Positions 904 to 59,863 of a DNA stretch of 64,000 nucleotides are shown piece after piece. This stretch comes from a virus. The position numbers and the translations under genes were made by a program. Positions within the stretch are counted from its first letter, which is position 1; every line of letters begins with the position of its first letter. Below the pieces are notes generated by a model, which was not told the origin of the DNA, ran no database searches, and saw nothing but the letters and a program-made list of their open reading frames with translations. The stretch spans positions 32,001 to 96,000 of the IMG/VR virus record IMGVR_UViG_3300024054_000008; one strand, written 5' to 3'.

Positions 904-2511
904 TTATCGATACAAAACAAATTTCAATTTTGATTTAGTTGGCTTCTTCTCATAACCAAATTTCTCTGCGTATTCACGTTCTTTCATTTTCATTTTTTGA
1001 GCATGTTCGTAAAGAGTTTTTTTGTGAACGACATATCCTTCTGGACTAATATAAAAATAACTAACTGATGTTTCTTTTAAAAATTTCCAATTTGAAGCCT
1101 TATATATGGTTCCTGTATGGCCAAATGTTGGGTCTGCAAATGATATTATTACATCAATTGATTTAAATTCATCAAATAACAGTTTTGAACATCTGGATAA
1201 AAACCAGCTTGCAAAATTTTTCTTTTGATAATTTGGATGAATACAAAAACGATCAAGCTCAATAACTTTAGATGGGCTCAAATTCATAGAAGTTGCAACT
1301 TCTTTTCTGATAATTGGCGTAAATTTACACACCGCAATAAGATCTTTTTCAAGAAAAGCACCAACCACTAATTTTTCTTTCCTACCATATTGTGCGTAAT
1401 GAAACGAATTCAAAAAATCAACATACACATGGTTTTTTGAATTTCGATTTTTATCAATTTCATTGAACTTTCTAACTATAACATTTTCAAAATCAAACTT
1501 ATGTTGAATTTCATTAAAATCCTTTAATACAAATTTAGAAATCTTTTGTTTCACAATTTCTGGGTTAAAAAAATCTCGTTCATGAAGATACAAAATACGA
1601 AAATTTTGAAAATATTTATCAATGTACGAAAATTTTGAAGAGTCTCTTCTCATACCGTCAGGGGTATCATGCCAATATTCACCTTGAACCTCCACAAGCA
1701 CAGAATGGTCTGGAATAAAAAAATCAAAAAGATAATATCCAATTGCAAATTGTTGTTCAAATTTTAAATCTAAACTTTTTAAAATGTTGCCTGTAGCAAT
1801 CTCTATATTTGAACGATATCCATCAGTTGATACCTTCTGTACAGCTTTTAAACGTATGTGTTTAGCTTTCTCGCTTATTTCATAACACGAACGACATATA
1901 TACCGAAAAGATTCCGAAGATTTTCTCTTATGCCGTCTAATAGCATTTTTTAAAGAGTCAAATCTAATTATTATCTCATTATTACAACAAGAACAAACAA
2001 CTATTACTTTTTTACCTTTATCACGATACGAACCAAATTGTTGTAATGTTTTCTCTTGATTAATGGCAGAATCAATATCTGATTGCACTGGCATAGACCC
2101 GCCTGATTTACACTTTCTGCAAACGTATTTATAAATTAATCCATTTTTCTTATATTCCCATATTCTAAATTTTAGAGAACATATCTTTATACTATGGTAC
2201 GAATTGCACACAGAACATAAAACTACTACTAAACTATGTTTATTTTTTGGAGTGCCGTGAAGAAGTTTTGTTTTTTCAACAGAAACATGAGTTATTATTT
2301 CTGGATCTAATCGATTTTTGTTTTTTCTAGTGCAATAATTACATAGTATTATAGTATTATACCCATTACGACGAAGTCTAACTTTTAAAGAATTTAAGTT
2401 TATTACTGATTCACGCCCACAAGGACAATTGATAATTACTGGTGATTTGTTTTTAGGATTTCCATATACATCAATAGTTTTATTTTTGTCATAAAATTTA
2501 GACAAATCCAT
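904..2511 (-). CDS. Zn-ribbon repeat + Vsr/DUF559-like endonuclease + Mom-like GNAT fusion (copy A)
   Basis: Three CxxC...CxxC repeats; nuclease motif SNIE...FDFF...EVQGEYWH; C-terminal FLNSFHY...ELDRFC...KKNFASWFLS...SFAD...GHTGTIYKASNW, typical of Mu Mom-family GNATs. Confidence 0.85.
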   Translation of the reverse strand: MDLSKFYDKNKTIDVYGNPKNKSPVIINCPCGRESVINLNSLKVRLRRNGYNTIILCNYCTRKNKNRLDPEIITHVSVEKTKLLHGTPKNKHSLVVVLCSVCNSYHSIKICSLKFRIWEYKKNGLIYKYVCRKCKSGGSMPVQSDIDSAINQEKTLQQFGSYRDKGKKVIVVCSCCNNEIIIRFDSLKNAIRRHKRKSSESFRYICRSCYEISEKAKHIRLKAVQKVSTDGYRSNIEIATGNILKSLDLKFEQQFAIGYYLFDFFIPDHSVLVEVQGEYWHDTPDGMRRDSSKFSYIDKYFQNFRILYLHERDFFNPEIVKQKISKFVLKDFNEIQHKFDFENVIVRKFNEIDKNRNSKNHVYVDFLNSFHYAQYGRKEKLVVGAFLEKDLIAVCKFTPIIRKEVATSMNLSPSKVIELDRFCIHPNYQKKNFASWFLSRCSKLLFDEFKSIDVIISFADPTFGHTGTIYKASNWKFLKETSVSYFYISPEGYVVHKKTLYEHAQKMKMKEREYAEKFGYEKKPTKSKLKFVLYR

Positions 2512-2689
2512 ATATAATTATACAAGAATGATTACGAAAAAAATTTGTAATATTATTAACATGTAAACTACAGAATTTTTACACCGAAATCTTCGATCGT
2601 ATTATATTTCAACTAAAGAAAATAGAAAAGAGAACAAACTAAAGAAAAATTAAATATACAAACTAAAATTTAAGGATGAAAACAAATAC

Positions 2690-2724
2690 TTTTTCGCCCG
2701 AGGTTTTCGGCCTCGGGCGAAAAA
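2690..2724 (-). terminator. Strong hairpin after the major capsid gene (probable terminator or mRNA-stabilising stem)
   Basis: TTTTTCGCCCGAGG-7nt loop-CCTCGGGCGAAAAA, a perfect 14-bp stem 23 nt downstream of the capsid stop. On the minus strand it is followed by GUAUUUGUUUU rather than a classical pure U-tract. Confidence 0.7.
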
Positions 2725-2747
2725 GAGTTCTTAAAAGCTCAGAAAGC

Positions 2748-3635
2748 TCACCGCGTAATGATGAGACGCACCAACCCGCGTGGGTTAAATGCTCCGATCC
2801 CGAGATTTTCGAACATACTGAAACCAATCGTGCGCTCTTCTGGATTGTCTGCCGACAATACAGTCAACTCTGTACGGACTGGTATCCGTCCAAAGAACTC
2901 TGGCTCGCAACAGACGTACACAATGCCAGCCGGAACGAGACGTGACACAATGAACTGAGCGTTCCAACCGCTCGCCATCATACCACTCTTCCACAGCGTT
3001 GCTTGACTCTCAATGTCAAGAACGTCGCGACCGAACTTACGGATATCTGCGTAATCAGTCGCGTTCATATAAACGCGAGCAACACGCAGGTCGTGGCGTT
3101 CAATTTCGGCGAACGCGTCCGCGAGGACGGCCGGAGAAACTGGCGCAACAACTGGAATATCCGGGTTCGTGCCGCCAGGCAGCGAGTCAAAACCGCTGAC
3201 CGCGATGGCATCAAGAATCGAGAACACACGGTCGTCCTCGGCAGCCTGAATCTGAGCTTTGCCCAGATCTTGCATACGCTTAAGCAGATCGTACCGGCGC
3301 TCCTTCACCTGTGTGAGCGGGGCTTTCGGCAGAGCCGCAATTTCGAAAAGCGGGAAAATCACGCGCCGTGGCTTTGCAACGGCTGTAATGCTCTCGCCTT
3401 CCTCACCAATCACGTATGCAATCACGTCCGGATCTTTGTCATAGATCGGAAGCGCTCCATCCGGAAGCTGCTCAACCAAGAAGGTCTTACGGCCTACAGA
3501 CGAGTAATCTCTGCGCTCACGCAGAGGCTGAACCATCGAAGCCGCTAAGCGACGACGGCCAGATGAACTGCCAATGTATTGGTCGACAACCTTTTCTTTG
3601 ACTGCGTTGTCGACAACCTGAACTCCAAACGGCAT
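2748..3635 (-). CDS. Major capsid protein (HK97-fold type)
   Basis: 295 aa, strong SD (AGGAGG), highest GC and codon bias in the window, position at the end of the protease-scaffold-head cluster, ends ...GIGAFNPRGLVRLIITR as in HK97-like MCPs. Confidence 0.8.
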   Translation of the reverse strand: MPFGVQVVDNAVKEKVVDQYIGSSSGRRRLAASMVQPLRERRDYSSVGRKTFLVEQLPDGALPIYDKDPDVIAYVIGEEGESITAVAKPRRVIFPLFEIAALPKAPLTQVKERRYDLLKRMQDLGKAQIQAAEDDRVFSILDAIAVSGFDSLPGGTNPDIPVVAPVSPAVLADAFAEIERHDLRVARVYMNATDYADIRKFGRDVLDIESQATLWKSGMMASGWNAQFIVSRLVPAGIVYVCCEPEFFGRIPVRTELTVLSADNPEERTIGFSMFENLGIGAFNPRGLVRLIITR

Positions 3636-3658
3636 CTTGCTATCCTCCTAAGCCTGAA

Positions 3659-4330
3659 TCAGGCGTAGAGCTCCACAAACAGCTCGGTGCTGCTGGAGTC
3701 CGGTGCAGAAAGAACAACGCCCATACGAGTTAAATCCGGTTCAATAGCAGCGCCGCCACCGCCAGAACCAGAAGTTGCAGCTGTGATCCACTGAGTCTCA
3801 TACGAATCTTGCCAACGGTTCGTTAAATAACCATTGACAGACGCGTACAGGAGCTGACCTTCATCATATGATGTCAGCGGGTTACCAATCACGCCACCGC
3901 CAACTGTTGTCTGCACCTGAGTCTCGTAGATTTTCGTTCCGATTGCACCACCACGAACAAATGGCCCTTTTCCTGAGGCCACGCCGGGTGTGTTCTCGTA
4001 CGCATTTCCAAGAGCGTCGTTGATGAAGATGCCGAGGGGGCGAACGTTTGCAATGTAGGTTGGACCAGCCGTTACCTTGGCTCCGCCTACAGTGTTCGTT
4101 CCCGCGTCAGGTCGAACCAATGCTACCGAACCGCCAAGCACGCCCAGCTTCACGTTAGCTGGCAAAGTCGTAGACCGCGCGCTTGTGGTAGTCTCAACGT
4201 TCGGGTTATTCTGCGTAAATGCATCCGATGCAAGATCCGGAATTGAATCTTTTACATAGGAATACAGAATGCGCAGCGAGCTATTCGAAAGGCGAAAATC
4301 GCCTGATGCTTGACCGCCGATGTTTCCCAT
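3659..4330 (-). CDS. Auxiliary head / capsid decoration-like protein
   Basis: 223 aa, Gly/Thr/Val-rich beta-type sequence, GGGAG SD, immediately upstream of the MCP with similar high codon bias; function inferred from synteny. Confidence 0.55.
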   Translation of the reverse strand: MGNIGGQASGDFRLSNSSLRILYSYVKDSIPDLASDAFTQNNPNVETTTSARSTTLPANVKLGVLGGSVALVRPDAGTNTVGGAKVTAGPTYIANVRPLGIFINDALGNAYENTPGVASGKGPFVRGGAIGTKIYETQVQTTVGGGVIGNPLTSYDEGQLLYASVNGYLTNRWQDSYETQWITAATSGSGGGGAAIEPDLTRMGVVLSAPDSSSTELFVELYA

Positions 4331-4524
4331 TACTATCTCCCAGATCCCAAAAGACTTGCACTTAGCTTATCAAACTGTCTAAAGTTAAACGATTTCAGTC
4401 CACCATTGGCGCGAAACCATTATTTAACTTCATTCAATTCAACCGCTTCGTTTAAATCCTCCGAAATTTCAGGCCAGGTCTGCGTCTTTGTTTCCCAATA
4501 TCACCGGCAGCATGCCGGATAATC

Positions 4525-5751
4525 TCAAGCTCCTGGTCGATCCCAAAGAGCTTCTAACATTGTGTCCTCAGTTGGTTTCTTACTTGGCTGGACAGCACCA
4601 AGTTTCTTAGTTGGATTTGTTGAAGCCGTGCGACCAGCAATTGGCTGGAAGTCTTGCTCTGAGGCAGCCTTCAGCTCACGTTGCGCCTTAACTTCTTCAT
4701 GATCTGAGAAGAGACGATCTAAAGCGTCATCGTCTCCGGGCAACTTCGACGCTGTGTGGACATCGTCATCACCGCCATCGAATGAGATCTCAACCTCACC
4801 AGGTGATTTGTTTTCAGAAGCCGCAATTGGAGCAGCTGGTTGTTCAGTTGTCTGGAACAACGCATGAAGATCATCAACTGGCGCAGCCTCTGTAACTGGT
4901 GGCTGTGCGCCTGGAGCGCCTGGTGGCGGACCAAGCTCCTCAGTCAACATTTGTTCAACTTCTTTAGCTTCGGCTGAAGTAATTCCTTCGCCTTCGCCTT
5001 CGCCTTCTGGCTCTTTCTTCTCAGTCATTGTCTGAGAAGTTTTCTTCTCAGTCATTGTCTGAGAAGTTTCTGTTTCTTCTTCCTCTTCAGCTTCTTCCTC
5101 TGTCTCATCATCAGCAATTCGGACCGAAGCTACTGCTCCAATTATGCCTTTCAACACCTTATCATCAGCAGCGTAAAAAGCACGGGCGACAGTTTCAATT
5201 GCATTATCACCGGCACTCTCGCCAAGCATACGCGCTGCCAATTTAGTGCACGCCATAGCTCGATTGTAACGAGCTTTCGGCTCCATCGAATCAGGAGACG
5301 CCTCTCGCATACGTTTTAATGTAGAAACTATAACTTGATTCGGTAAACTCATAAAATCAACAATTTGATCTTCTACAACCTTGTCACTGGCAGTATGCAA
5401 AACGGCACGTGCCAGTTTCTCAACGGCCGCAGCCTTTCTTTCGGCCGCAGTACGCCGATTATCGTACTTACCTTTGCTATCACGACCCCATTTATCTGAG
5501 TCTTTGTGGTCCCAGGTGTCATTCCTAAACTCTGGGAAACCAACTTCGTTGCGCTTTACAGCGCCACCTTCATATTCTGAATCAACACGACCCGGGCCAT
5601 GCCATGACTCAGCCCACTCATCTGGATTGCCGCTCTCATACTCAACTGGAGTTGGTTGAGGATGCTCTTGATTCATGTCGTAAATATCAGCTTTTCTAGC
5701 TGTAGCAGCTTGATGAGCTTTCCCAGATTCCCAAGTTGTGCGCTTACGCAT
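4525..5751 (-). CDS. Acidic scaffold-like head protein
   Basis: 408 aa, helical segments plus acidic/Pro low-complexity tracts (DDETEEEAEEEEE, EGEGEGEG, GPPPGAPG); lies between the protease and head genes; AGGAG SD. Confidence 0.6.
   Translation of the reverse strand: MRKRTTWESGKAHQAATARKADIYDMNQEHPQPTPVEYESGNPDEWAESWHGPGRVDSEYEGGAVKRNEVGFPEFRNDTWDHKDSDKWGRDSKGKYDNRRTAAERKAAAVEKLARAVLHTASDKVVEDQIVDFMSLPNQVIVSTLKRMREASPDSMEPKARYNRAMACTKLAARMLGESAGDNAIETVARAFYAADDKVLKGIIGAVASVRIADDETEEEAEEEEETETSQTMTEKKTSQTMTEKKEPEGEGEGEGITSAEAKEVEQMLTEELGPPPGAPGAQPPVTEAAPVDDLHALFQTTEQPAAPIAASENKSPGEVEISFDGGDDDVHTASKLPGDDDALDRLFSDHEEVKAQRELKAASEQDFQPIAGRTASTNPTKKLGAVQPSKKPTEDTMLEALWDRPGA
5014..5069. repeat. 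In-frame tandem duplication of a 27-bp unit containing an 8-bp inverted repeat
   Basis: TTTCTTCTCAGTCATTGTCTGAGAAGT occurs at 5014-5040 and 5041-5067 and encodes TSQTMTEKK twice; CTTCTCAG and CTGAGAAG are reverse complements. Confidence 0.95.
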
Positions 5752-5803
5752 GATCGTGTAATCTCCTATAGGGACTTTCCATTAAAATCATATGAAAAAT
5801 CCA

Positions 5804-8677
5804 TTAGTTTCCAATCGCCAGTGACGATATTTTACCCTTCCAAATGAAGAACCTTTCTTCATTTGGTGTTAGTTTTCGACCCAATTTGATGCTACATGCG
5901 GCCAGATATGACTGCTGACTTGGGTACAATTTCATTGGTCCAACAGCTAAAACTACTTTATAAAGACTTGATAAAGTAGAATTATCATGACCTAACCTAA
6001 TTCTATCTTCTACCCAAGATAGAAGAACCAAATCACGGCTATGCAAATGATTTGCTTTTATGGCACGCAAACCACCGTAATGAACAATTTTATAATTTTT
6101 CTCTGACCACTCAATCAATTTTTTGTTAGATCCGAATTGCTTTCGAAGCCCGTTTTTGAATTTCAAATATTTGTGATCTGCAGTTGAACCAAGCACCAAA
6201 TTATCATTGTAACCAGTAACACCGACAGGCTGCGTCGGACTTTCGGCATACCCAACATCTTCAGGTTTCGGACCAAATCTTTCTTTGATTCGGTTTGAAA
6301 GAGCCTCAACAATCGTTTCTTGTATGCTGTCTATTAATTTATCAATTTTTTCATCAACGGGAACTTCTTTTGATTCTTCTTTTTCCGGCTTTTCATCGGC
6401 CTTTTCATCAGCTGGCTTGTCAGCTTTATCAAATTCTGTCGGAGCTTCATCAGCTGGCTTATCTTCTGCCGGCTTCTCTTCAGGCTCCTGTGCAATTTTC
6501 ATTGAAGCTGCATGTTTGATACCATCAGGTAAAGGCTGAGACGATCTTACGTCATAAATTTGTTGAGATGCAGCAAATTGTGAATTTGGTACTAAAGTTG
6601 GATTCAAAAGATTGCGTTTAACAGCACCTTTGAAAGCCGGATTTTTAACCCAAGAAGCTTCAATAAATTGATTGCTCTTTGGTACAGAAACGTGACCAAT
6701 TAATTCAGAAATTTGATTCTCTGCGCCAGTATCATCAATAAATTTGTTACCTTTTCCTTCGTATAAAATGCAGGAGCAAAGATTACTATCGTCTGCAGCA
6801 ACATTCCCACACTTTGTACAAATGGTAAAAAGTGATATACAATTAGATACACCAATACCGTTTACGACATATGAATGATCATTATCAACTTGCATATCGT
6901 AAACAAACCCACGGTACTCAGTTTTATCGATTTTCTTTATACGCGAGAATAAATAACCACCAGCAATCCATCGATCTGAATTTCCTGATTTATATTGAAT
7001 TTCTGATTTATTTTTTTGGATTTTTACAGATGGAATTTTTACTGATCCGTCATTTCTAATTCTGATTTGATAATCAATACCGCTTGCATTTGGAAGTAAT
7101 TTAGTACCTTTTCTACGAATTGATGAGACAGTACTTATTATTCCACATCTAGCAAGTAGTAAGAAATACTGATTAGCTAAATTCCTATTACGAGTTGATA
7201 TGAAAACTTGTTTTGTGCCGTTTTTAGTCGTGCTAACACAACCGTCGGAATCAACAACTCCAGATAAAAATGCCAATTGATGATCAATCGGCCATGACAT
7301 GACATCCTGAGAAATCGATTTCTCAAGAGCCTTACGACCGTGCGTATAAGCGTCAATTAAATTCCGAACTGCATGACTAGAAGAAACAAGGTAATAAGCG
7401 TTCTTTCTTTGTTGGCAGGATACAGCTTTTGGTTCCTTGCGCGGATCTGATAAAAATGCTGTGCCTTTTTCTTTATAAGAATTTACCCAATTATAACCAG
7501 TTCTACGACTAACACCAGCACGTTTGCATAAACTGGCGAATGATTTATCATTCTCAGACCAAGCTGAAATGAATTGCGACCTACTAAAAAATTCACCATT
7601 TGCTACAACACGAGTTTCTTTAGACTTCCAAGAAATACGATCAATAATTGATGACATTTCCTTAGCTATGTCAGGATAGCTAACATCACAACATAAACCA
7701 ACCCCAATTGAAGAATCATGTTTATTTTCCCATTTCCAACCGTCACCAATCCAATAACCTAATAATCTAGCTTCTTCAAGTGTAACAGCAGGTTTGATGG
7801 TGTTGGTCGGGATTGGTGTAGCAATAATATCATTGATTTGAATCTTGTCAGCGTTTAATTTTTCAAAGTTATATGTAGTTTGTACAAATTTGTTGTTCTT
7901 ATAAATAACACTATCACGCGGAACAACATAAAAATCATGGTTGCTTGTAGCATTAACAACAGGAAGACCAACGGCTTTGATTTTATAAATCGACCAACGA
8001 TTTTCTCTGATTTGTAAATTGTTTACCCGACACACATTACCTTTTTGAGAAAGGACTTCCATATCAGGTCTGATATCTTCAATCGGTAGGACAGAACCGT
8101 CTCCTAAAGTAACCAAAGACCCTGGAACAAAACAGCCCATCGATTGAGCTGTTATTTCTTCAGATAAAATATCGTCAATTAATTTAGTGTGTTTTCTATC
8201 AGTTGCACAAAGAATGTCAATATAAACTGAATTGCCAACATCTCTTGCTATTGCATCAACAATGAATCCTTTTGACAACTCAGGGATCTGTATGTGCTCT
8301 AAATAAACGTTGGCACCTACAAAAGTTTTGTATGTTGCTAACAATAACGGACGCGCCCATCCGTCCATATTATTGTTCACGATGTTCAAACATTCAGGTT
8401 TAATTCTATAATCTGGATGTCTAACGTCAATCTCCATTCCTCTAACAAGTTGTTTGCCAAGTTTAACATTTTTAGGTTCATAAGTATCAACGGACGCAAC
8501 GATTGTGCTGTGTGATAATAAATATTGATTCGGGTTACATTTTCTCAATAAAGTCTTTGCAACTCTATTAGTATGATCTGACACTCCCTCATTGGGTCTG
8601 CGTAATTCCTCAACCCACTGGTCGTACTTTATATTTGGATTACATACCAAACTACTGGATGTTTTTCTAAACGCCAT
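5804..8677 (-). CDS. Prohead (capsid maturation) protease precursor with intein
   Basis: N-extein has ...YLEH... and ...SMG; C-extein CISLFTICTKCGN...ISELIGHV...FIEASWVKNPAF, an SH-clan/herpes-fold-like His, Ser and E-x-S-x-V-x-x-PA pattern; acidic C-terminal tail. Spliced length 526 aa. Confidence 0.7.
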   Translation of the reverse strand: MAFRKTSSSLVCNPNIKYDQWVEELRRPNEGVSDHTNRVAKTLLRKCNPNQYLLSHSTIVASVDTYEPKNVKLGKQLVRGMEIDVRHPDYRIKPECLNIVNNNMDGWARPLLLATYKTFVGANVYLEHIQIPELSKGFIVDAIARDVGNSVYIDILCATDRKHTKLIDDILSEEITAQSMGCFVPGSLVTLGDGSVLPIEDIRPDMEVLSQKGNVCRVNNLQIRENRWSIYKIKAVGLPVVNATSNHDFYVVPRDSVIYKNNKFVQTTYNFEKLNADKIQINDIIATPIPTNTIKPAVTLEEARLLGYWIGDGWKWENKHDSSIGVGLCCDVSYPDIAKEMSSIIDRISWKSKETRVVANGEFFSRSQFISAWSENDKSFASLCKRAGVSRRTGYNWVNSYKEKGTAFLSDPRKEPKAVSCQQRKNAYYLVSSSHAVRNLIDAYTHGRKALEKSISQDVMSWPIDHQLAFLSGVVDSDGCVSTTKNGTKQVFISTRNRNLANQYFLLLARCGIISTVSSIRRKGTKLLPNASGIDYQIRIRNDGSVKIPSVKIQKNKSEIQYKSGNSDRWIAGGYLFSRIKKIDKTEYRGFVYDMQVDNDHSYVVNGIGVSNCISLFTICTKCGNVAADDSNLCSCILYEGKGNKFIDDTGAENQISELIGHVSVPKSNQFIEASWVKNPAFKGAVKRNLLNPTLVPNSQFAASQQIYDVRSSQPLPDGIKHAASMKIAQEPEEKPAEDKPADEAPTEFDKADKPADEKADEKPEKEESKEVPVDEKIDKLIDSIQETIVEALSNRIKERFGPKPEDVGYAESPTQPVGVTGYNDNLVLGSTADHKYLKFKNGLRKQFGSNKKLIEWSEKNYKIVHYGGLRAIKANHLHSRDLVLLSWVEDRIRLGHDNSTLSSLYKVVLAVGPMKLYPSQQSYLAACSIKLGRKLTPNEERFFIWKGKISSLAIGN
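6842..8134 (-). mobile_element. Intein (431 aa) with LAGLIDADG homing endonuclease in the prohead protease
   Basis: SMG|CFVPGSLV ... ATSNHDF (block B) ... LLGYWIGDG, FLSGVVDSDG ... HSYVVNGIGVSN|C. Confidence 0.92.
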
Positions 8678-8714
8678 AGTCTAAATTGACTTAATAATAA
8701 AGACCTGAAATAAA

Positions 8715-9484: not shown

Positions 9485-11008
9485 TTAAGATTTATATATC
9501 CAAAGTTTCTTACCAAGATCCCAAATTTTTCTACCATTTTGTTCATCAAATTTCAGTCTTTTCTGACCATTCACGACCCAATAGACAGGTTCAATGTTAT
9601 TAGCAAATTTAAATCCTAATTTTTGAAAAATTGACCCATCATCAATTCTGTTATCAGAATATGCATACACAAATTTTGGACAATAACTAATAACAAATTG
9701 ACTCAGAATTTTCTCTAAACCACCACAAACTTCGAATTTATTGTTAGTTGATATGGAAAGACACCAAGAATTTTGTTCTATATCAAACTCATAGAACGAA
9801 ACACACATGACTAACAAATTATTATAATAAATGCCATAATTTACATCAGTCCCATTGGTTTTGTCATAACAAAATTCTTTATAAAAAGAATTTGCCGTAT
9901 CCTTTGAAATCAAATTTATATGGTAATTATGTATCAGTTGTTCGATGTGTAATTTACCAATGATCAAATTTTTTATTTGTTTATGTTTACCAACCCATTC
10001 ATCCTCAAAAATCATTAGGTAATTAAATCCGCTTGATTTGGCCATTTCATATTTAGCAAGATCATATTTTTTAGAATTTGTTTGTGAATGCCATCGAAGT
10101 CCATTATATTCGATAAGTAAATTGTTAACCGGAACGAAAATATCGTATGTAAAATTATTAATCTTATATTCAAGCACTGGATCAACATCAAAAGAATTAA
10201 TAAAATTGAACAAGGATTGTTGTTGCCCAGAAATTTTATTATAAGAACACCCACATGTTATTGAAATTCCACGACGAATATCATTCCATCTTGGTTTATA
10301 CTTAGAATTGCAAGCATTACATACGGCCAGAAATGGCCTCATAGTTGATTTGATAGGTTCAAGAACTTCAATAAATTCTTTTATATCATCAGGAAAAATT
10401 GGAAATTTCAACGAATGTATTAATTTTTTGTTTATTTCGTATTTTTTCCATGCATTTTGATAACACTTACCACAAGTTTTTGTATCGCCACGTGTAACAC
10501 TCGAAACTGTAATACATTTTTTACCACCACAGCTACACAGCCAATTTACTTTTGAATGTGAATTTTTATGTATATCAATCGGGTTTTCTATACGAAGACG
10601 TCCGAAAGTAATAGATGATAAATAATCTTTGGACAAGACATGACACTTACCACAAGTTTTCTGGCGTTTAGAAGTAACATTTATGATATTTGCAAAAGTA
10701 TGATCACCGCAATCACAGTCCCATTTTATTTTCTTATTTGATTTAAGATGATAATCGGATGGTTCAGACATCCGAAGTGATCCAAATTTAGTTTGCTCCC
10801 AAAACAGTTTTGGGAGCACATTGCATTCACCGCAAGTTTTCTGACCACCAACTACTCTATAAACTTTTATATATTTTTCTTTGCCACAATCACAAACCCA
10901 AATTACCCCTTTATTCGATCCAGAATGAATCGGGATCGGGGTTTTCATCCTTAATGACCCAAATTTTCTTTCCCAAAACTGGGCGGGTTTCAAATTTCTA
11001 TTTATCAA
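9485..11008 (-). CDS. Hef-like free-standing homing endonuclease (Zn-ribbon repeats + DUF559-like nuclease + degenerate GNAT-like tail)
   Basis: Repeats FGxLR...WxCxCG...KTCGxC (three, plus one degenerate); YDIFVP...IEYNGLRWH; tail YSDNRIDDGSIFQKLGF...IWDLG. Confidence 0.75.
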   Translation of the reverse strand: MINRNLKPAQFWERKFGSLRMKTPIPIHSGSNKGVIWVCDCGKEKYIKVYRVVGGQKTCGECNVLPKLFWEQTKFGSLRMSEPSDYHLKSNKKIKWDCDCGDHTFANIINVTSKRQKTCGKCHVLSKDYLSSITFGRLRIENPIDIHKNSHSKVNWLCSCGGKKCITVSSVTRGDTKTCGKCYQNAWKKYEINKKLIHSLKFPIFPDDIKEFIEVLEPIKSTMRPFLAVCNACNSKYKPRWNDIRRGISITCGCSYNKISGQQQSLFNFINSFDVDPVLEYKINNFTYDIFVPVNNLLIEYNGLRWHSQTNSKKYDLAKYEMAKSSGFNYLMIFEDEWVGKHKQIKNLIIGKLHIEQLIHNYHINLISKDTANSFYKEFCYDKTNGTDVNYGIYYNNLLVMCVSFYEFDIEQNSWCLSISTNNKFEVCGGLEKILSQFVISYCPKFVYAYSDNRIDDGSIFQKLGFKFANNIEPVYWVVNGQKRLKFDEQNGRKIWDLGKKLWIYKS

Positions 11009-11520: not shown

Positions 11521-11536
11521 ATCATTTCTTGACTAC

Positions 11537-51017: not shown

Positions 51018-51028
51018 TGCTATTGACG

Positions 51029-51938: not shown

Positions 51939-52138
51939 TAATACTGAAACACACCACCGACGCCAACTGTCCACGTGTATCTACATTTCTCGCACGTGTA
52001 CCTTTGCTCCGTAGAACCGTCTTGATTATGTTTCTTAACAAACATACCATCGCAAGTTTGACCAGCGGTTAATCTATCAGAACCGCGGCGACATTTCATC
52101 AAAATCGGTTTATCTTTTATTTTATTTTCAACTGTCAT
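51938..52138 (-). CDS. Small Zn-ribbon protein
   Basis: 66 aa, C...C...CEKC; ATGA coupling. Confidence 0.6.
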   Translation of the reverse strand: MTVENKIKDKPILMKCRRGSDRLTAGQTCDGMFVKKHNQDGSTEQRYTCEKCRYTWTVGVGGVFQY

Positions 52139-52482
52139 GGTCTGTTCCGATATGCTTCACTAACCATACCATGCGCTCGTTTGATCAAATCTTCTATTTT
52201 GTCAGAAGAAAACAAAGGAACAGATAAATTCAAAGCTATATTCTTACAAATATCAAAATCTTCTCTCAATAACAAAAACTGTAACTCTTGACGTTGAGGT
52301 ACATGAACACTTACTATTTCTCTGCCATTCAAATTGTTTGAAATAGTTATGTGATTGTTTAATTTTCCAAGAGCTAAATAAACAATCATCAATGGGAACG
52401 TTTTAACAGCATAATCAAATGTAGCTGGTCTTACAAGTCTGCCGTTTCGTTTCTTGTTTGAATAAGAACCGTCGAGTGTCAA
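52135..52482 (-). CDS. Hypothetical protein
   Basis: 115 aa, coupled to its neighbours. Confidence 0.6.
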   Translation of the reverse strand: MTLDGSYSNKKRNGRLVRPATFDYAVKTFPLMIVYLALGKLNNHITISNNLNGREIVSVHVPQRQELQFLLLREDFDICKNIALNLSVPLFSSDKIEDLIKRAHGMVSEAYRNRP

Positions 52483-53633
52483 ATCGCCTCTTCAACACTT
52501 TCAGAACCTTTAGATTTTGGTTCCATAGGTTGAATTGCATCAACGTTAACACCTTGTTTTTTTAGTTTTTTCTTCAAATTATCGTATGATCTTTGATCAA
52601 GTGGAGATAACGGACCTTGTAGCTCCATCCATTTGAATCTAGCAAATTTTCTCTCATCAATGCCGCGTTGATATAGTTCACGCTCTTCAATTTTCTTACG
52701 TTCAATTTTTTCAATTTCACGCGGTGAGACATCAGAAAAAAATGACTCATACAAAGTCTCATAGTCAACCATCGGAAGTTTATTTTCTATAAAATTATGT
52801 ATTTCACTCAAAAGTTGTTTTCTCAAATCACCAACAAATCCAGACCATCGTTTTTCGTTAGCTTTATATAACTCTGGGTGCTTTTCTTTCAGAGTTGAAG
52901 CCTGACCCATATTTTCTTTAATGTCTGACCCAAAACTTCCGACTTCATCAATAAAAATCAAATCGAACAATTTACTGGTGTTTTCTGACAAAGAAGACCT
53001 TAAAGCCGGTATGTAATCACCTATTTGATCATAAAATTCTTTAACAGCGGCTCTTTCGTCTAAAGCCTTACTTATGTCATTTTCATCAATATCCGGAATA
53101 CGACCTTCACCACCCTCTGGAACGCCCCCACCTTCCGGCCTTCTGCCAAATGCTTCCTGTATCCCAGTCTCTTTTTCTTTTTTTCTAAATTTTTCCTTTG
53201 ATTTCGTTATACTGCGACGACGTATATTGCTATATATAGCACCAAGAGCCTCTTTCCAAGAATCAAAATCTTTTCTAAAATTCCATGGCTCAGCAGTTTT
53301 TCGCTTTATAGTTCTGATTTCGCCGTCTTCTGTCTCTTCCTCTACAAATTCAGTCCCAGTTGAAATGTATGTAAGAAAATCTTGAACAGAATCCATAGCG
53401 TCAGCTTCATTATACTGAAGCTGTTTCTTAGCTATGGCTAACATCTTTCCACCAACTTGGTGTGGATGAGCGTCAACTGTTTGATCTGGATATTGTTTTT
53501 TTAAAATATCAATAATCGCCCTACCGAAGCCTTCTTCAATATCAAGAGCTAGCCTGATTATTGTGTAAGCTAGCCTAACCCCAGGAGTTATATTAAATGA
53601 TACGGATTTTGCTATAGAATCAAAATTTGGCAT
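52479..53633 (-). CDS. Hypothetical helical protein
   Basis: 384 aa, charged; N-terminal SIAKSVS. Confidence 0.7.
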   Translation of the reverse strand: MPNFDSIAKSVSFNITPGVRLAYTIIRLALDIEEGFGRAIIDILKKQYPDQTVDAHPHQVGGKMLAIAKKQLQYNEADAMDSVQDFLTYISTGTEFVEEETEDGEIRTIKRKTAEPWNFRKDFDSWKEALGAIYSNIRRRSITKSKEKFRKKEKETGIQEAFGRRPEGGGVPEGGEGRIPDIDENDISKALDERAAVKEFYDQIGDYIPALRSSLSENTSKLFDLIFIDEVGSFGSDIKENMGQASTLKEKHPELYKANEKRWSGFVGDLRKQLLSEIHNFIENKLPMVDYETLYESFFSDVSPREIEKIERKKIEERELYQRGIDERKFARFKWMELQGPLSPLDQRSYDNLKKKLKKQGVNVDAIQPMEPKSKGSESVEEAI

Positions 53634-53657
53634 TTATAGAAATTATTTAATAACAAT

Positions 53658-55028
53658 TTAAGAACTAATTTGTTTGTGCTTTGCCCTATTCAATGCAGCT
53701 ACAACTCTATCAATCGGATAAGAAAGTCTTGACGATATGTCTTCCGGACTCATTCCGATTGAATTTAAAGAATTAAAAAAATCGGTCCTGGCTTTGACTG
53801 GCGCTCCAAACAATTCATCACCTAATAATTTGTGAACATCACAACCATTCCTATTGCAAGCTTCTTGAGCCAACCTATTTATGTGTTCATCGCTGTGATT
53901 ATAATTTCTAAGTTTATTAATGGCTGATGTTCTTAATTTGTTGACACGATTTGATGATACACCAATACTAGATGCATATTTTCTTATTGGAATATCAGAA
54001 ACATCTATTGCAACCAAAACGTTATGTTCATCTTGGCTAAGGTTTGCCCTATCAACACAATTGATCAAATCAATGCGTTTCTCCAACCTTTCATAATCCA
54101 TCATTGATGATGGATCTCTAAAAGATCTCGTTATACTATCAGGACCATTTTCGTCATCACCTTTTTCTATAGATACAATTTCATCATCTGAATACTCAGG
54201 CGATACACCATTATTGTAAATCATTATGCTCGTGTCATCTGACCGAGACATTCTCTTGAAATCGTTTACAACTTCATTGTCAATTACCATTTGAGCATAT
54301 TTTAGTAATCCAGCTGTTACATCGTGATTAGTCTTCCTCATGATATATCTTGGAACTGATTTAACAAGATTTGACCTTCTCCAGTCACGAAGAAACAACT
54401 TTAATTGATTGTCATTCCAACGCAATTTTAACACTTCTTCTGCATTGGAAAGATCAGTCCAATTGTGGGCCAAACTTAATCCTTTAGAATAAAGTAACTC
54501 TTTGCCATGTTTGCATCCAGTACAAGAATGGCGATCATCTGAACAAACATGTTCAGTCATTTCAGAAGGAAGCAAACGGCCTTGCCTATACAAAGACTGC
54601 AAAGAGCCAAAGTCAACATCTGAATAACCAAGAAGACGTAAAACACGAGCAGTGTCTATCGTATGGCCTTGTGGTGAATAATAATACCTAGAATAGTCAA
54701 ATTTTGCATATCTGAGAATATCAGATATCATCCACAAAGAATTTTGGTCAGATCTCTTTCCTTCAACAGGCGAAACATATGATATATACGTTAATGGTGC
54801 CCCTCCAAGAATTGATTCAGCTTGAGTACGATCAACAAGTTCGTCAGTTAAATGTTTAAAAAACCACCTACCAATGAAGTCTTTGCTCAAAAGACGCAAA
54901 CGAACATTTTGGACGGTGTCCATCATTCGTTCTTTGTCACGCTTAAAATGTCTAGAAACTTTTGCGTGAGTCCACGCGTAATATTGTTTGAGAAATTCTT
55001 GGTTCGTCGGGATTTGAATCGGGAACAT
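53658..55028 (-). CDS. Sigma-factor-like protein with a large region-2 insertion and an extra C-terminal HTH
   Basis: Region 2-like YAWTHAKVSRHF...DTVQNVRLRLL and LKYAQMVIDNEVVNDFKR; region 4 LSQDEHNVL...YASSIGVSSNRVNKLRTSAINKLR; a GGAGG SD favours the ATG at 55028 over 55040. Confidence 0.65.
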   Translation of the reverse strand: MFPIQIPTNQEFLKQYYAWTHAKVSRHFKRDKERMMDTVQNVRLRLLSKDFIGRWFFKHLTDELVDRTQAESILGGAPLTYISYVSPVEGKRSDQNSLWMISDILRYAKFDYSRYYYSPQGHTIDTARVLRLLGYSDVDFGSLQSLYRQGRLLPSEMTEHVCSDDRHSCTGCKHGKELLYSKGLSLAHNWTDLSNAEEVLKLRWNDNQLKLFLRDWRRSNLVKSVPRYIMRKTNHDVTAGLLKYAQMVIDNEVVNDFKRMSRSDDTSIMIYNNGVSPEYSDDEIVSIEKGDDENGPDSITRSFRDPSSMMDYERLEKRIDLINCVDRANLSQDEHNVLVAIDVSDIPIRKYASSIGVSSNRVNKLRTSAINKLRNYNHSDEHINRLAQEACNRNGCDVHKLLGDELFGAPVKARTDFFNSLNSIGMSPEDISSRLSYPIDRVVAALNRAKHKQISS

Positions 55029-55041
55029 CTTTACCTCCATG

Positions 55042-55088
55042 CAGCAAATAATTTGCTGACTTACAGAGTATTGGGCACAAAGCCCAAT
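55042..55088. promoter_or_regulatory. Two inverted repeats in the leader of the sigma-like gene
   Basis: CAGCAAAT-A-ATTTGCTG (55042-55058) and ATTGGGC-ACAAA-GCCCAAT (55070-55088). Confidence 0.5.
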
Positions 55089-55103
55089 TTACGATGTGGT
55101 GTT

Positions 55104-55133
55104 ACCCTACCATAGTCTGAGCCATTTTGTCAA
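55104..55133 (-). promoter_or_regulatory. Sigma70-type promoter upstream of the sigma-like gene
   Basis: TTGACA-18nt-TAGGGT with TGn extension. Confidence 0.6.
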
Positions 55134-55161
55134 TATACGGCAAATAATCATAAATTTTCAC

Positions 55162-56145
55162 TTATTGAATAGTTGAAGCGTATTTCTGATTATTTTCAAC
55201 AATCTGCTCTGGCTTCTGTTTAAACAAAATAGCTTGTGCATTTTTATCAAGGATTGAAACTTTGTATCTGGAAATTAAAGTGACAGCAAATCCGACTCTA
55301 GATCGTGACTCAGTCTGGTTATCTTTACACGACCCGGTAGCATACGCACTAAGACGATCCAAAGTATCCTGCTTTCTGCAGGCACTAAATGACCTACGCA
55401 TTGCGTTTAACCCGGCTGTAAAACATTTTGTACGGTCTTGCACAAGATCTTGACCAGACCAACCCTCTGGGGTCTTACCATTACCAATGTGCATTTGCAT
55501 TAAACACCAACTTTTGCCTTTATCGCCCCTAGCAAATTTTCCTAAACCGTAGTCTATGTCACGTCTAAAACCAGATTCAAAAAAAGCCACAGATATCATC
55601 AACATGGCCGTCCTGGCTCTTCCATATTTGCCATTGAAAATTGGTTTAGAGTTTGGATTATAAACAACTTTTGCAAGATCAAGAGCTATAGACTCATACC
55701 TGTCTTTAGCATCTTCTTTGCTTTCTTTTGCATGTTCATAATACGAAACCATCCCCGGGGTCCTTAATTTAGTAAGAACTTGATAAATCCAAAAATACGA
55801 TTCTTTAAATTTAAGTTCAGCAAGGTATTTATTTGCTTCGTCTTTGTGTAATGAAGATGCTCTCTCATCTGTAGACGCTAAGAAAACGTCAAAGTTTTTT
55901 GTTGCAGATTCATTGTCTTTAAACATAAAATAAGCGACTGCCATGTTATATCTGACAATCGCTTTATCTTCTAATTCTAAAGACCGTTTGTAGTTGTCTA
56001 TTGCAGTTTGCCAATTTTTTGCAGAAGCCGCCGATTGTCCATCTTTAAAATAAGACTCAGCGTTCGTTTTAGAATCTTGTGCATGAGAATTGTTAAACAA
56101 AAGCAAAATTGCAATTGCAACAAAAAACTTTAATTGTGACTTCAT
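55162..56145 (-). CDS. Secreted TPR + lysozyme-like / lytic transglycosylase protein
   Basis: Sec-type signal MKSQLKFFVAIAILLLFNNSHA, two TPR-like helices, catalytic-like AFFESGF and CLMQ motifs. Confidence 0.7.
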   Translation of the reverse strand: MKSQLKFFVAIAILLLFNNSHAQDSKTNAESYFKDGQSAASAKNWQTAIDNYKRSLELEDKAIVRYNMAVAYFMFKDNESATKNFDVFLASTDERASSLHKDEANKYLAELKFKESYFWIYQVLTKLRTPGMVSYYEHAKESKEDAKDRYESIALDLAKVVYNPNSKPIFNGKYGRARTAMLMISVAFFESGFRRDIDYGLGKFARGDKGKSWCLMQMHIGNGKTPEGWSGQDLVQDRTKCFTAGLNAMRRSFSACRKQDTLDRLSAYATGSCKDNQTESRSRVGFAVTLISRYKVSILDKNAQAILFKQKPEQIVENNQKYASTIQ

Positions 56146-56174
56146 GTCATTACCTCGTTCAAGCCGAATAGCTA

Positions 56175-56198
56175 AGCACTTGCACCAAATTTTGTCAA
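56175..56198 (-). promoter_or_regulatory. Possible sigma70-type promoter upstream of the TPR-transglycosylase gene
   Basis: TTGACAAAAT (same as at 55133), with an imperfect -10 (TTAGCT) at 17 nt. Confidence 0.35.
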
Positions 56199-56210
56199 AT
56201 CAAAATTATT

Positions 56211-56474
56211 TTATTTCTTAAATGGAGAAAGCTCTAAATACTGAATAAAACCATTTAAACTTGATTGCACTGAAATGTGTTTGTATTTCTTTTTTGTAAC
56301 AACATACTCACCTTGAACAATCCTTTTCTTGTTCAAATGTTTTGGATGGCGCAAATTAGCATCAATTTCTACAACATCACCTTCATTCAATAATGGCCAA
56401 TCTGAAACTCGAAGTTCATAATGTCTAGGAACATCAGTAAAAATAATAATTGTTTTAAAGTATGGTGAAATCAT
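56211..56474 (-). CDS. Small hypothetical protein
   Basis: 87 aa, beta-strand pattern. Confidence 0.55.
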   Translation of the reverse strand: MISPYFKTIIIFTDVPRHYELRVSDWPLLNEGDVVEIDANLRHPKHLNKKRIVQGEYVVTKKKYKHISVQSSLNGFIQYLELSPFKK

Positions 56475-56475
56475 T

Positions 56476-57195
56476 GTGAAATACTACAGTACACTAAACA
56501 AAAAAGAAAAATTTTTGTTGGAAGAAAAATTAGAAGAAATTCTAAACAAAAGATTCGGAAAATCAAAAGAAAATGAACAATTGAAACAAATTTTGTCAAA
56601 AATGATAGAAAAAAAGTCAATACCGGTTGAATTAATAGAAAAAATACCGAAGAAGCCGGAAGAAGCAGGAAGAACAAAATTCGATCAAATTTATGAAGCA
56701 GCAATAGAATTGGCTTTTCCAAGTTATGGCAAAAACACGTTATCAAATTTAACAAAAATAAACGACAACAAAATAAAGATATGGAGGATAGTAGCACCGA
56801 ACAAATACAAAATACCACACGTTTTGATCAGAGCAGAATCAATACAAGAAGCGTTTGCTTTAGCATGCGATTACGTTTGTAGAGCTTCTCTACGTTTATT
56901 AGGTGAAATACCAGCGGATTTACAAATAAGAGTAATATTTATGTCTGAAAAAGCTGTTAGAAGATATTTGGGCATAAAATGGGCAAATAGATTGAATAAA
57001 AGAAAAAAATTGAATTTGATGGAACGTGAATTCTCAAATGATGAAATACAAAAAGCGACTGAAGTTGCTTTGAATGGACCAAAAGACGAAACTTATAGGA
57101 TAGTAAAATATATGGAAGAAAAAGATTTATTAAAAATAAAGAAAACATTTAACAGAATAAGAATTTCACCAATAGAAAAAAAATCAACAAAATAA
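56476..57195 (+). CDS. Basic hypothetical protein upstream of purZ
   Basis: 239 aa, co-oriented 36 nt before purZ; no HD or MazG motif recognised. Confidence 0.65.
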   Translation: MKYYSTLNKKEKFLLEEKLEEILNKRFGKSKENEQLKQILSKMIEKKSIPVELIEKIPKKPEEAGRTKFDQIYEAAIELAFPSYGKNTLSNLTKINDNKIKIWRIVAPNKYKIPHVLIRAESIQEAFALACDYVCRASLRLLGEIPADLQIRVIFMSEKAVRRYLGIKWANRLNKRKKLNLMEREFSNDEIQKATEVALNGPKDETYRIVKYMEEKDLLKIKKTFNRIRISPIEKKSTK

Positions 57196-57231
57196 TCAAA
57201 CTTCAGATGTATTGTTTCGTACGAGGAACCA

Positions 57232-58431
57232 ATGATAAAAGGCAGATTTAACGTATTGTTGGACCAAGCTTGGGGTTCGAGCGGGAAAGGCTTGATGTCA
57301 ACATGGCTTGCAGATCACTTTAACATCAACCACGTATCTTCAGCTAATCATCCCAATGCCGGACACTCGGCAATAATTGATGACATAAAATTCGTTGCTA
57401 AGGCCATACCAACAGCCGCAATTTTAAAAAAAGCAAAAGGCGTTGATATAAAGTGTTTCATATCACCAGGTTCTGGTTTCACTTGGAAACAGTTGTGTAA
57501 AGAATGGATTGAAACAGAAAAACCAGAAATTTTCATACACTCTCGTGCATCAATTGTGACCGAAGAACACGCAAAGCGCGAACGTGAAGGTGCAGAATCA
57601 ACAAAGCATATTGCATCAACAATGCAGGGCACAGCAACGGCAATAGCAGACAAAATTTTAAGAAAAAAAGATGTTAAATTGGCAGGAACATTGCCTTTAA
57701 ATGAATTTATCGAACACGAATTTAAATCAAATTCAGAATTCAAAATTTTCAGCGCTTATCTTGATGAATTTTACGAAAAAGTTCGTATAATTGACGCGAT
57801 GGAATTCAGAAATTTGACTCATTCAATAATCAAATCAGGAAATCAATGGTTACACGAAGGAAGCCAAGGATACGCTTTATCAATTGATCACGGATCTCAC
57901 TATCCACAATCAACATCAAGAAACTGTTCATTGCAAGCAGCAATGGACTACATGGCTATACCGCCCCAAATGGTTGGAGATGTTTATTTGAATTTAAGAT
58001 CATTTCCGATAAGGGTAGGAAATGTTATAGAGGATGGGGTTCAAAAAGGATACTCTGGTGATTTCTATCCAGATTCAAAAGAATTAACCTGGGAAGAGGT
58101 CGGAAAAAACGCTGGCATGCCAGAAGAAGAAATACAAAAATTAAGAGAACGCGAGTTGACAACAGTTACAAAAAGACTTAGAAGAGTTGCTACATTTAGT
58201 TGGATCGGACTTCGAGATGCTGTTCAAACAAACGGAGTGACTAAGATCTGTGTGAATTTTATCCAATACATAAATTGGAAAGATGCTGGTCTAAAAGGCG
58301 GAAAAGAAGCGTTCGATCGACTTTCAAGTGAAAGTCGGTCTTTTATTTCAAAAGTCGAAGAAGTTTCTGATTTACCAGTCGTTCTTGTTGGAACTGGACC
58401 GCGACACGAAGACATCATTTCTATCTTGTAA
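57232..58431 (+). CDS. purZ: PurZ-type N6-succino-2-amino-2'-deoxyadenylate synthetase (adenylosuccinate synthetase paralog)
   Basis: WGSSGKG (Ser in place of PurA Asp in GDEGKG), PNAGH, IASTMQG, EGSQG, TSRN, FPIRVGN, TTVTKRLRR, NFIQY, GTGP. Confidence 0.8.
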   Translation: MIKGRFNVLLDQAWGSSGKGLMSTWLADHFNINHVSSANHPNAGHSAIIDDIKFVAKAIPTAAILKKAKGVDIKCFISPGSGFTWKQLCKEWIETEKPEIFIHSRASIVTEEHAKREREGAESTKHIASTMQGTATAIADKILRKKDVKLAGTLPLNEFIEHEFKSNSEFKIFSAYLDEFYEKVRIIDAMEFRNLTHSIIKSGNQWLHEGSQGYALSIDHGSHYPQSTSRNCSLQAAMDYMAIPPQMVGDVYLNLRSFPIRVGNVIEDGVQKGYSGDFYPDSKELTWEEVGKNAGMPEEEIQKLRERELTTVTKRLRRVATFSWIGLRDAVQTNGVTKICVNFIQYINWKDAGLKGGKEAFDRLSSESRSFISKVEEVSDLPVVLVGTGPRHEDIISIL

Positions 58432-59863
58432 ACAGAAACTTTAGTTTCTCTTTCCCAAAAACTTTCTTGTAGTTATGTTTTTCAGCATAACTACTTTCTT
58501 TCATCTTGCACGACCTTGCATGGTTATATAATGTCTTCTTGTGCATCATCCATCCATTAGAATCAACATAAACATAGTCAGGTTTAACAGTTGAAACTAG
58601 AACCCAATTGGCGGCTTTGTATATTGTACCAACATGCCCATACGTTGTGTCAGCAAATGAAACAACGGCTTTTACATTTTTGAATTCATTCAAAAACATT
58701 TTGGTACATCTAGACAAAAACCAAGTTGCAAAATTTTTCTTATGACGATTTGGGCTGATGCAAAAACGGTCAAGTTCGAAAATTTCTTTGGTTGTATATC
58801 CAGAAGATAATGCAGTTTCCTTCCTAGAAAGCGGAGAAAACTTGCAAACAGCTATTAATTCACTTTCTAAATATGCACCAATCACAAATTTTGGCTTTTT
58901 GCCTTCTTGAGCATAATGCCACGTCCTTAAAAAGATCTCCGAATCCGATATTTGACAGATTCTAACTTTAACAGACCTGATATCGAAATCATCTAAACAC
59001 TGGATTGATAATTTTAACTGATTTTTTAGTTTTTCAGCAACCTTTCCAGTCGACAATAATTCATTCTCCCAGATATAGATTAGTTTAGAATTTGGAAAAG
59101 ATTTCATTAAATAAGACAGCTTGGCTTTATCTCTCTTAGAGTTATGCGGGAGGTTATGCCAATATTCACCTTGAACATCGATAAATGCGTCATGTTTTGG
59201 TAAATAAAAATCAAAATTATACGGACCAACTGCCCTTTCCGATTCATATTCTATATTGAGATTGTTCAAAATGTTAGCAAATATTTTCTCAGGTCTAGAA
59301 CGATTTCCAGATGAATAAAATTTTTCAATACCCTTTGCAATTTTGATTTTATATTCATCATTTTTAAATCTGTTTTTTGCAAGCTCTCTGTGCAAATCTT
59401 TGTATTTTTGTTTATTTACAGCTTTTTTGTGATTCTTTCTAGCCTTCTCTGTGTGCAATGCGTATACTTTCTCTCTCAAATACTTACCGGGGTCAATTTT
59501 GTATTCACTTTTGTTTCGTTCAGAAACTAATTTTTTATGTTCTTCAGATTTAAATAATTTGTTGATTCTATCAATTTGACATTTTCGGTACGATTTGTTC
59601 TTCCACGCCTGTTTTGACTGCTTAGACCTTTGCAATTTTGCTTCGTCGGTATTAAATGTGCACTTCATACATGAATAAATGCCATTTTTCTTTTTGTTTT
59701 GTAAATAATTATAATAGGTAACTATTGATTCTCTATCACATAACTCACATTTCGCCCAAGTTTTTCTTTTTTGTTTGCTAGACCCGAACCAAATTGTCGG
59801 TGGAATTTTATATCCAAAATCATCTAAATTTTTATTTTCAAGTAACACATACAATCGTAACAC
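58421..59863 (-). CDS. Zn-ribbon + Vsr/DUF559-like endonuclease + Mom-like GNAT fusion (copy C)
   Basis: SRPE...FDFY...DVQGEYWH; FLRTWHY...ELDRFC...KKNFATWFLS...SFAD...GHVGTIYKAANW. Confidence 0.85.
   Translation of the reverse strand: MLRLYVLLENKNLDDFGYKIPPTIWFGSSKQKRKTWAKCELCDRESIVTYYNYLQNKKKNGIYSCMKCTFNTDEAKLQRSKQSKQAWKNKSYRKCQIDRINKLFKSEEHKKLVSERNKSEYKIDPGKYLREKVYALHTEKARKNHKKAVNKQKYKDLHRELAKNRFKNDEYKIKIAKGIEKFYSSGNRSRPEKIFANILNNLNIEYESERAVGPYNFDFYLPKHDAFIDVQGEYWHNLPHNSKRDKAKLSYLMKSFPNSKLIYIWENELLSTGKVAEKLKNQLKLSIQCLDDFDIRSVKVRICQISDSEIFLRTWHYAQEGKKPKFVIGAYLESELIAVCKFSPLSRKETALSSGYTTKEIFELDRFCISPNRHKKNFATWFLSRCTKMFLNEFKNVKAVVSFADTTYGHVGTIYKAANWVLVSTVKPDYVYVDSNGWMMHKKTLYNHARSCKMKESSYAEKHNYKKVFGKEKLKFLFTR

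Follow-up and report, generated by a model that had tools for sequence, protein, structure and literature searches.

Hef-like candidate homing endonucleases with a Mom-like domain at several loci of an uncultivated jumbo phage

The window discussed here, meaning the whole 64,000-nucleotide stretch of DNA that was analysed, is G000:C1:32001-96000 of a 182,739-bp IMG/VR virus record (IMGVR_UViG_3300024054_000008), and it carries several genes in which a nuclease domain is followed by a domain resembling the DNA-modifying enzyme Mom of phage Mu. Three of these were the starting point, all on the minus strand. Copy 1 (904-2511, 535 aa) lies directly downstream of the major capsid gene, copy 2 (29144-31003, 619 aa) directly downstream of a sigma-70 region-4-like gene, and copy 3 (58421-59863, 480 aa) is convergent with a purZ-like gene, with an 11-nt overlap at the 3' end of the latter. 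The source record is 43% complete (CheckV), its relatives reach 393 kb with terminal repeats, and the phage occurs in lake-water metagenomes; the record is thus a fragment of an uncultivated lake-water jumbo phage.

An initial annotation made from the letters alone had described the three open reading frames (ORFs) as sharing a near-colinear C-terminal module, and this is correct. The C-terminal 300 or so residues are colinear in a three-way alignment, copies 1 and 3 being 45% identical over 314 aa (E 2e-93), and all the motifs quoted for the module are present (S..E, FD, GEYWH, HY, ELDRFC, KKNFA[ST]WF, SFAD, GH.GTIYKA.NW and HKKTLY). Copy 1 encodes its arms at about 1825-2511, followed by the EDxHD nuclease (about 1537-1824) and the Mom-like GNAT domain (about 907-1494). 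The corresponding segments are at about 30068-31003, 29774-30067 and 29147-29731 for copy 2, and at about 59312-59863, 59018-59311 and 58424-58981 for copy 3, all on the minus strand. The N-terminal arms are as different as had been described: three CxxC...CxxC zinc ribbons in copy 1, a single ribbon and about a dozen short W.DP-type helical repeats in copy 2, and a single ribbon with about seven helices in an AlphaFold2 model of copy 3. They have at most one zinc ribbon in common and align only weakly (E 0.018), and the analysis supports their prediction as variable DNA-binding arms.

The family is larger than the three copies first counted. A profile built from the two-domain module (nuclease plus Mom) and run on the 182,739-bp record finds seven members, five of them in the window. 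Copy 1 matches it at E 1e-122 with its catalytic motifs aligned. The fourth member in the window (9485-11008, minus strand, 507 aa) has arms made up of treble-clef zinc fingers. Its nuclease motif is intact, and it matches the profile at E 3.9e-20 over model positions 7-169 and 218-255, with Pfam hits to DUF4379 and REase_MTES_1575. Its Mom-like part is degenerate and truncated, the equivalent of Mu Mom H58 being Cys and the EL.R motif having gone. The fifth (63386-64000, plus strand) is the N-terminal part of a 648-aa gene that continues past the window end to 65332; it matches at E 4.9e-40, with Pfam hits to REase_MTES_1575 and weakly to Mom. Upstream of the window there are two further members, G000 9986-11851 and G000 4264-6057. 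We distinguish a subtype A, with the motif SFAD.T.GH and four of the seven copies, from a subtype B comprising 9485-11008, the gene starting at 63386 and G000 4264-6057. Subtype B has treble-clef zinc-finger arms and an SDNR motif and retains a Mu-like Asp-x-Arg (D-x-R) in all three copies. A recent triplication within this genome was considered and rejected, as the copies are 46-57% identical to their locus-mates in other phages and 39-41% to their own paralogues.

The domain assignments of the initial annotation, a Vsr/EDxHD nuclease and a Mom-family GNAT, also hold. The central domain of copy 3 (residues 189-280) matches I-Bth0305I (PDB 3R3P; phmmer E 2.8e-6), the structural prototype of EDxHD/Vsr-like homing endonucleases and one for which the catalytic residues have been named (PMC3239194). 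E192, D218, Q231, H236 and D245 of copy 3 align with E170, D196, N208, H213 and D222 of I-Bth0305I, and these catalytic residues are present in all seven copies of the record and 90-100% conserved among 239 representatives. There are weak Pfam matches to Vsr, DUF559 and REase_MTES_1575 in the central region, that in copy 1 being to DUF559.

For the Mom-like domain, Pfam PF25680 (Mom) matches copies 1-3 at 83.9-89.4 bits (E 1e-23 to 1e-25; cut-off 27.1), copy 1 scoring 85.7. G000 9986-11851 scores 79.9 bits, again above the cut-off, and 9485-11008 and the gene starting at 63386 fall below it. Copy 3 finds Mu Mom (8BV8) directly at a phmmer E of 0.008. An AlphaFold2 model of copy 3 from a 72-sequence alignment (mean pLDDT 90.6) has 8BV8 chains A and B as its top Foldseek matches (E 1e-11; TM-score 0.60-0.64 by target), and generic GNATs rank below them at E about 6e-6. 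Helices 442-451 and 456-462 of the model, between late strands, are judged from topology to be the Mom-specific insertion. Both profile and predicted structure, the comparisons that had been proposed for this domain, thus point to Mom.

In the Mu Mom reaction glycine passes from Gly-tRNA(Gly) to adenine N6; R111, S124, D149 and R151 are essential, R151A being inactive, and H58, Y59, Y159, W48 and W181 are important, W48 for the dimer, while the helix-turn-helix (HTH)-like insertion is required and thought to touch DNA (PMC13219725). The initial annotation would have judged the domain by its acyl-CoA pocket, but that criterion is outdated since Mom uses Gly-tRNA(Gly) (PMC13219725). Residue conservation was counted over the 239 representatives, all of which have the full module. 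The equivalents of H58, Y59, R111, D149 and Y159 are kept in 238-239 of the 239 and in copies 1-3, and at the S124 position 210 have Ser and 28 have Thr. Mom columns average 33% identity across the representatives, and there are further invariant polar residues specific to the family (R347, H410, H441, K442 and E456).

Such conservation at pairwise identities of 35-50% argues for chemistry at the Mom site, and with the catalytic residues of Mom invariant across the representatives, R151 excepted, catalysis is plausible. On the sequence data we consider the chances slightly better than even that the domain is a working enzyme in the four subtype A copies. Several observations weigh against this. 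The R151 position is Thr in 210 of the 239 representatives, including copies 1-3, and Ser in another 17; 235 have His at the R154 position; no conservation is seen at W48; the gene at 9485-11008 has kept its nuclease intact although the core motifs of its Mom part are lost; and two of three cultured Hef-like proteins, the family discussed below, have Asn at the D149 position. The description of the domain as an intact adenine acyltransferase was thus overstated, being right for six functional residues of Mu Mom and wrong for the essential R151, and the geometry of donor or acceptor may have changed.

Much the same observations can be read as those of a homing endonuclease in which the Mom-like domain, derived from a Mom ancestor, performs no catalysis and serves only to bind DNA, flip bases or dimerise. 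The replacement of R151 by Thr would be expected of such a domain, as would the D149 to Asn and HY to HL or HF changes of cultured Hef-like proteins, the persistence of 9485-11008 despite its decayed Mom part, and a role like that of the Mu Mom HTH-like insertion in contacting DNA. What is hard to explain without chemistry is the near-absolute retention of H58, Y59, R111, S124, D149 and Y159, together with the five family-specific polar residues, at 35-50% identity. We regard a silent domain as a possibility of lesser weight.

Genes of this kind are not new. An exhaustive search of 1.84 billion cluster representatives gave 385 metagenome clusters (at 50% identity) with E <= 1e-30 and 4,640 with E <= 0.001, with both domains covered in almost all of the top 150. 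In every case the module is C-terminal, behind arms of about 10 to about 1,000 residues in the cluster representatives. By tblastn the closest annotated proteins of cultured phages are "Hef-like homing endonucleases" at 24-28% identity, carried by Acinetobacter phage 133, Klebsiella phages K64-1 and RaK2, Campylobacter phages CP81, CPX and Los1 and Yersinia phage phiR1-37, with LIMEstone1 also annotated. The module profile spans both domains of Los1 gp005 (E 1.6e-29), K64-1 gp200 (E 8.5e-25) and Acj133p179 (E 1.6e-22). The cultured genes are free-standing, Acj133p179 lying between gp23 and gp24 and K64-1 gp200 between topoisomerase II subunits, with the tail sheath gene as another neighbour. 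The prototype is reportedly the Hef of phage U5, from the work of Sandegren et al. in 2005; our comparison covered the annotated Hef-like proteins of the cultured phages named above. Hef-type endonucleases were assigned to the EDxHD family by Taylor et al. in 2011 (PMC3239194), and Hef-like genes are multi-copy within single cultured-phage genomes (PMC3296691).

The same architecture has been reached from the other end. Iyer, Anantharaman, Krishnan, Burroughs and Aravind described Mom domains of jumbo phages fused to nucleases of the restriction endonuclease (REase) fold and predicted that momylation would serve self-protection and the nuclease the restriction of host or superinfecting DNA, in a text without the term homing endonuclease (PMC7824862). 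Hef-like/EDxHD and Mom-REase are thus two literature names for one family. PHROG 559 and 3339 span the full architecture, PHROG 559 nearly at full length, and JGI labels the genes of relatives 'very-short-patch-repair endonuclease/GNAT superfamily N-acetyltransferase'. A literature search joining Mom, Vsr, GNAT and phage endonuclease found nothing. From their sequences we have little doubt that the copies add new members, of a kind already known, to the Hef-like/EDxHD homing endonuclease family, and the claim of an undescribed system falls to the Hef-like annotation, the two PHROGs, the JGI naming and Iyer et al. 2021 (PMC7824862). The initial annotation had itself allowed that all homologues might be known Hef-like endonucleases with an inert tail; the identity has proved to be just that, and the tail does not look inert.

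The loci of the genes were compared with those of related phages. The survey of presence and absence that had been suggested finds variation at all five in-window loci. The neighbour of copy 1 is the gene for an HK97-fold major capsid protein (2748-3635, minus strand; NCBIfam NF042927, E 6.5e-39), presumed to contain the target site, and the protein is 88-94% identical in five relatives. At this locus only G004 has a counterpart of copy 1 (L037 7392-8894), and it is decaying: an in-frame stop divides it into ORFs of 215 and 280 codons and the nuclease His has become Tyr (GEYWYG), with the Mom motifs still intact. The neighbour of copy 2 (31038-31805, minus strand; Pfam Sigma70_r4, E 8e-16) has a product 62-70% identical in five relatives. 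Here a full-length orthologue of copy 2, 57.5% identical, is present in G002, and the locus is empty in G001, G003, G004 and G005. It is also occupied by P0074, P0096 and P0056 on contigs of 383-430 kb, these three having been picked solely for lying on very long contigs.

The neighbour of copy 3 encodes a PurZ-like adenylosuccinate-synthetase homologue (57232-58431, plus strand; Pfam PF00709, PHROG 1211). Besides the window, four other contig lineages have a gene at this locus, in each case an orthologue of 46-50% identity that overlaps the purZ 3' end convergently. It is empty in nine purZ-bearing relatives, in which purZ adjoins orf260; in L013 the orthologue of window gene 62791-63573 is within about 45 bp of purZ. 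The other two genes give a similar picture: 9485-11008 is inserted between genes that adjoin in G003, G004 and G005, and the gene starting at 63386 is an insertion that separates orf260 from orf459, neighbours in L013, L015, L018 and L022. At genome level there is no nuclease-Mom module in G003, a complete 393-kb relative with direct terminal repeats, nor in the 72%-complete G005, and there are at least six in G004.

Arm type goes with locus. In all nine of the relatives' copies tested, counting the full-length orthologue of G002, the arm is that of the window copy at the same locus. Thus four members at the purZ locus match the copy 3 arm (E 1e-33 to 1e-45), three at the sigma locus match the copy 2 arm (E 1e-34 to 1e-60), and the capsid-locus fragment of G004 matches the copy 1 arm (E 6.5e-5).

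The initial annotation had proposed a selfish element that was in effect a restriction-modification (RM) system aimed at host or competitor DNA. The first part of this is supported by our data. As for the second, one can picture a single-chain weapon in which Mom marks the adenines of the phage broadly and the nuclease joined to it destroys any host or superinfecting DNA that lacks the mark, as published for the jumbo-phage Mom-REase fusions. It would account for the retention of the catalytic residues of both domains across the 239 representatives, as expected if both activities are needed, and the multiple copies with differing arms could represent several specificities. However the absence of the module from a complete 393-kb relative means that it is not needed for genome protection, and it is also missing from the 72%-complete one. 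Copies are tied to particular intergenic loci with arm type following locus, one copy is decaying and another has its nuclease but has lost its Mom part, and the long modular arms suggest long and rare targets rather than short and frequent ones. Among 185,579 cellular species genomes, scanned with patterns specific to subtype A, the full module was found in five only, all on short contigs of metagenome-assembled genomes that are probably mis-binned phage DNA. Relatives without the module and a copy with its nuclease but no intact Mom part are also indirect evidence against carriers depending on a genome-wide protective modification of the Type IIG kind. We think a general RM weapon unlikely.

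Dispensable, locus-bound and sometimes decaying genes in which arm type tracks locus fit site-specific homing better. We conclude that the copies are probably free-standing Hef-like homing endonuclease genes that have colonised intergenic sites beside conserved genes, and, judging from the sequences, actual cleavage and homing are likely. In such a process the target would be an extended sequence within or adjoining the conserved capsid, sigma-like or purZ gene of a co-infecting genome that is free of the element. The variable arm would recognise this sequence, the EDxHD nuclease would cleave it, and recombinational repair would copy the element gene into the break. The most likely task of the Mom-like domain would then be to modify the exocyclic amine of a purine in the site that its own enzyme recognises, with an aminoacyl-tRNA as the probable donor by analogy with Mu Mom; otherwise it would be a DNA-binding or base-flipping scaffold. 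That modification of its own target makes the carrier genome immune to its nuclease is a tentative suggestion, which we would put at appreciably less than an even chance. A little more doubtful still is the full form of the idea, a homing element with RM logic in which an active tRNA-dependent aminoacyl or acyl transferase, with a Thr/His variant of the Mu active site, confers epigenetic self-immunity by marking the carrier's target, leaving just the unmarked genomes that enter the cell to be cut.

There are points that do not favour homing. Neither co-conversion of flanking DNA nor recent transfer left a signal in the divergent genomes compared, the identity of purZ to that of the window being 62-66% in occupied and empty relatives alike, and the copies are less conserved than their neighbour genes. 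Long vertical residence with losses would yield the same distribution, and the match of arm to locus would also be expected from plain orthology. Contigs of four lake metagenomes covering 52000-64000 are essentially variant-free and include no allele without copy 3, at a depth of 1-8 that is uninformative on polymorphism.

A further alternative is that the genes have been domesticated for a function tied to their neighbours, such as that of a nuclease/modifier with which a PurZ (2-aminoadenine) phage would discriminate against adenine-containing DNA or degrade it, or that of a regulator co-transcribed with the sigma-like gene. The 57232-58431 product has GSSGKG where PurA has GDEGKG, and its best NCBIfam model is PurZ at 179.9 bits, under the cut-off of 300. 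These features raise the possibility of a phage genome in which 2-aminoadenine replaces adenine, in which case 2-aminoadenine would be the substrate of the Mom domain. The 43%-complete record yielded no MazG or HD protein, the possible MazZ or DatZ partners of PurZ, and G003, the complete relative, likewise yielded no MazG. In favour of a shared function, many contigs keep a family member linked to purZ or to the sigma-like gene at just 35-57% protein identity, and on one contig family members flank purZ on both sides. Against this, nine relatives have purZ without the gene at this locus, the complete relative is without the family, other copies adjoin unrelated genes, and the intein that interrupts purZ in L018 suggests that purZ is simply favoured by selfish elements. 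We consider domestication very unlikely.

The contig with members on both sides of purZ is L039 (4001-8427). A copy of 508 aa converges with purZ at its 3' end and one of 565 aa diverges from it at its 5' end; the 565-aa copy has an arm resembling that of G000 9986-11851. In L018 (3597-6059) purZ is an 820-aa ORF broken after 'PNAGH' by an intein with LAGLIDADG-type motifs, and with this purZ appears to be a repeated target of differing selfish elements. Between copy 3 and gene 62791-63573 the window has a gene (59885-62530, minus strand) for an 881-aa HEAT-repeat protein that is without counterpart in the ten purZ loci compared, and it may have come in together with copy 3.

The window has inteins of its own. 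A class II ribonucleotide reductase gene (46190-50206, minus strand, 1,338 aa) has Intein_splicing and LAGLIDADG_3 domains at about residues 396-777, and a gene for a 957-aa protein (5804-8677, minus strand) carries both domains too, at about residues 218-609; G001, G003, G004 and G005 lack the central portion of this second protein, which G002 has. The capsid region (2748-5751) has a GC content of 50-54%, against about 34% for the genome, and with a capsid protein 88-94% identical in relatives whose other proteins are at 35-65% it forms a conserved and compositionally distinct island.

Contigs identical to the window over 52000-64000 were found in lake-water metagenomes of 2018 and 2025 from several studies, and the phage genotype has therefore been stable for years in this habitat. 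There was no RNA dataset listed among the sequencing runs containing the phage, and 20 kb of the window, compared by megablast with cultured phages, gave no match.

As genome annotation alone the finding is ordinary. Its interest is that the Hef-like/EDxHD and the Mom-REase labels belong to a single family, with at least 385 clusters at 50% identity, that the Mom catalytic residues hardly vary in a metagenomic jumbo-phage clade, and that the genes behave in their genomes as site-specific homing elements. This raises a concrete question that would be cheap to address, namely whether homing endonucleases put a chemical mark on the sites they target. An answer would help to explain how free-standing homing genes escape self-cleavage, and would bear on the reach of Mom-type tRNA-dependent DNA modification outside Mu.

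With regard to known systems, the Hef-like endonucleases of cultured phages are the closest, with the same two-domain module, variable arms rich in zinc ribbons and free-standing positions between conserved genes. They differ in falling under the Pfam Mom threshold and in having partly lost the Mom catalytic residues that subtype A of the window retains. I-Bth0305I has a homologous nuclease domain with the E, D, N/Q, H, D constellation common to both, but it is intron-encoded, has NUMOD/HTH arms and carries its nuclease domain at the C-terminus with no GNAT after it. Mu Mom is the best fold match to the C-terminal domain, sharing the H58, Y59, R111, S124, D149 and Y159 constellation and, in the model, a two-helix insertion before the last strands. 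In contrast identity to Mu Mom is only about 15%, the module has Thr for R151 and His for R154, lacks conservation of W48 and has invariants of its own; moreover its Mom-like domain forms one protein with a nuclease and with arms that bind DNA, whereas Mu Mom is a stand-alone protective enzyme regulated by Com. The fusions of Iyer et al. agree with ours in architecture, in phage class and in the prediction of a modify-and-cut protein; they were read as restriction systems, whereas the locus-level evidence given here favours homing.

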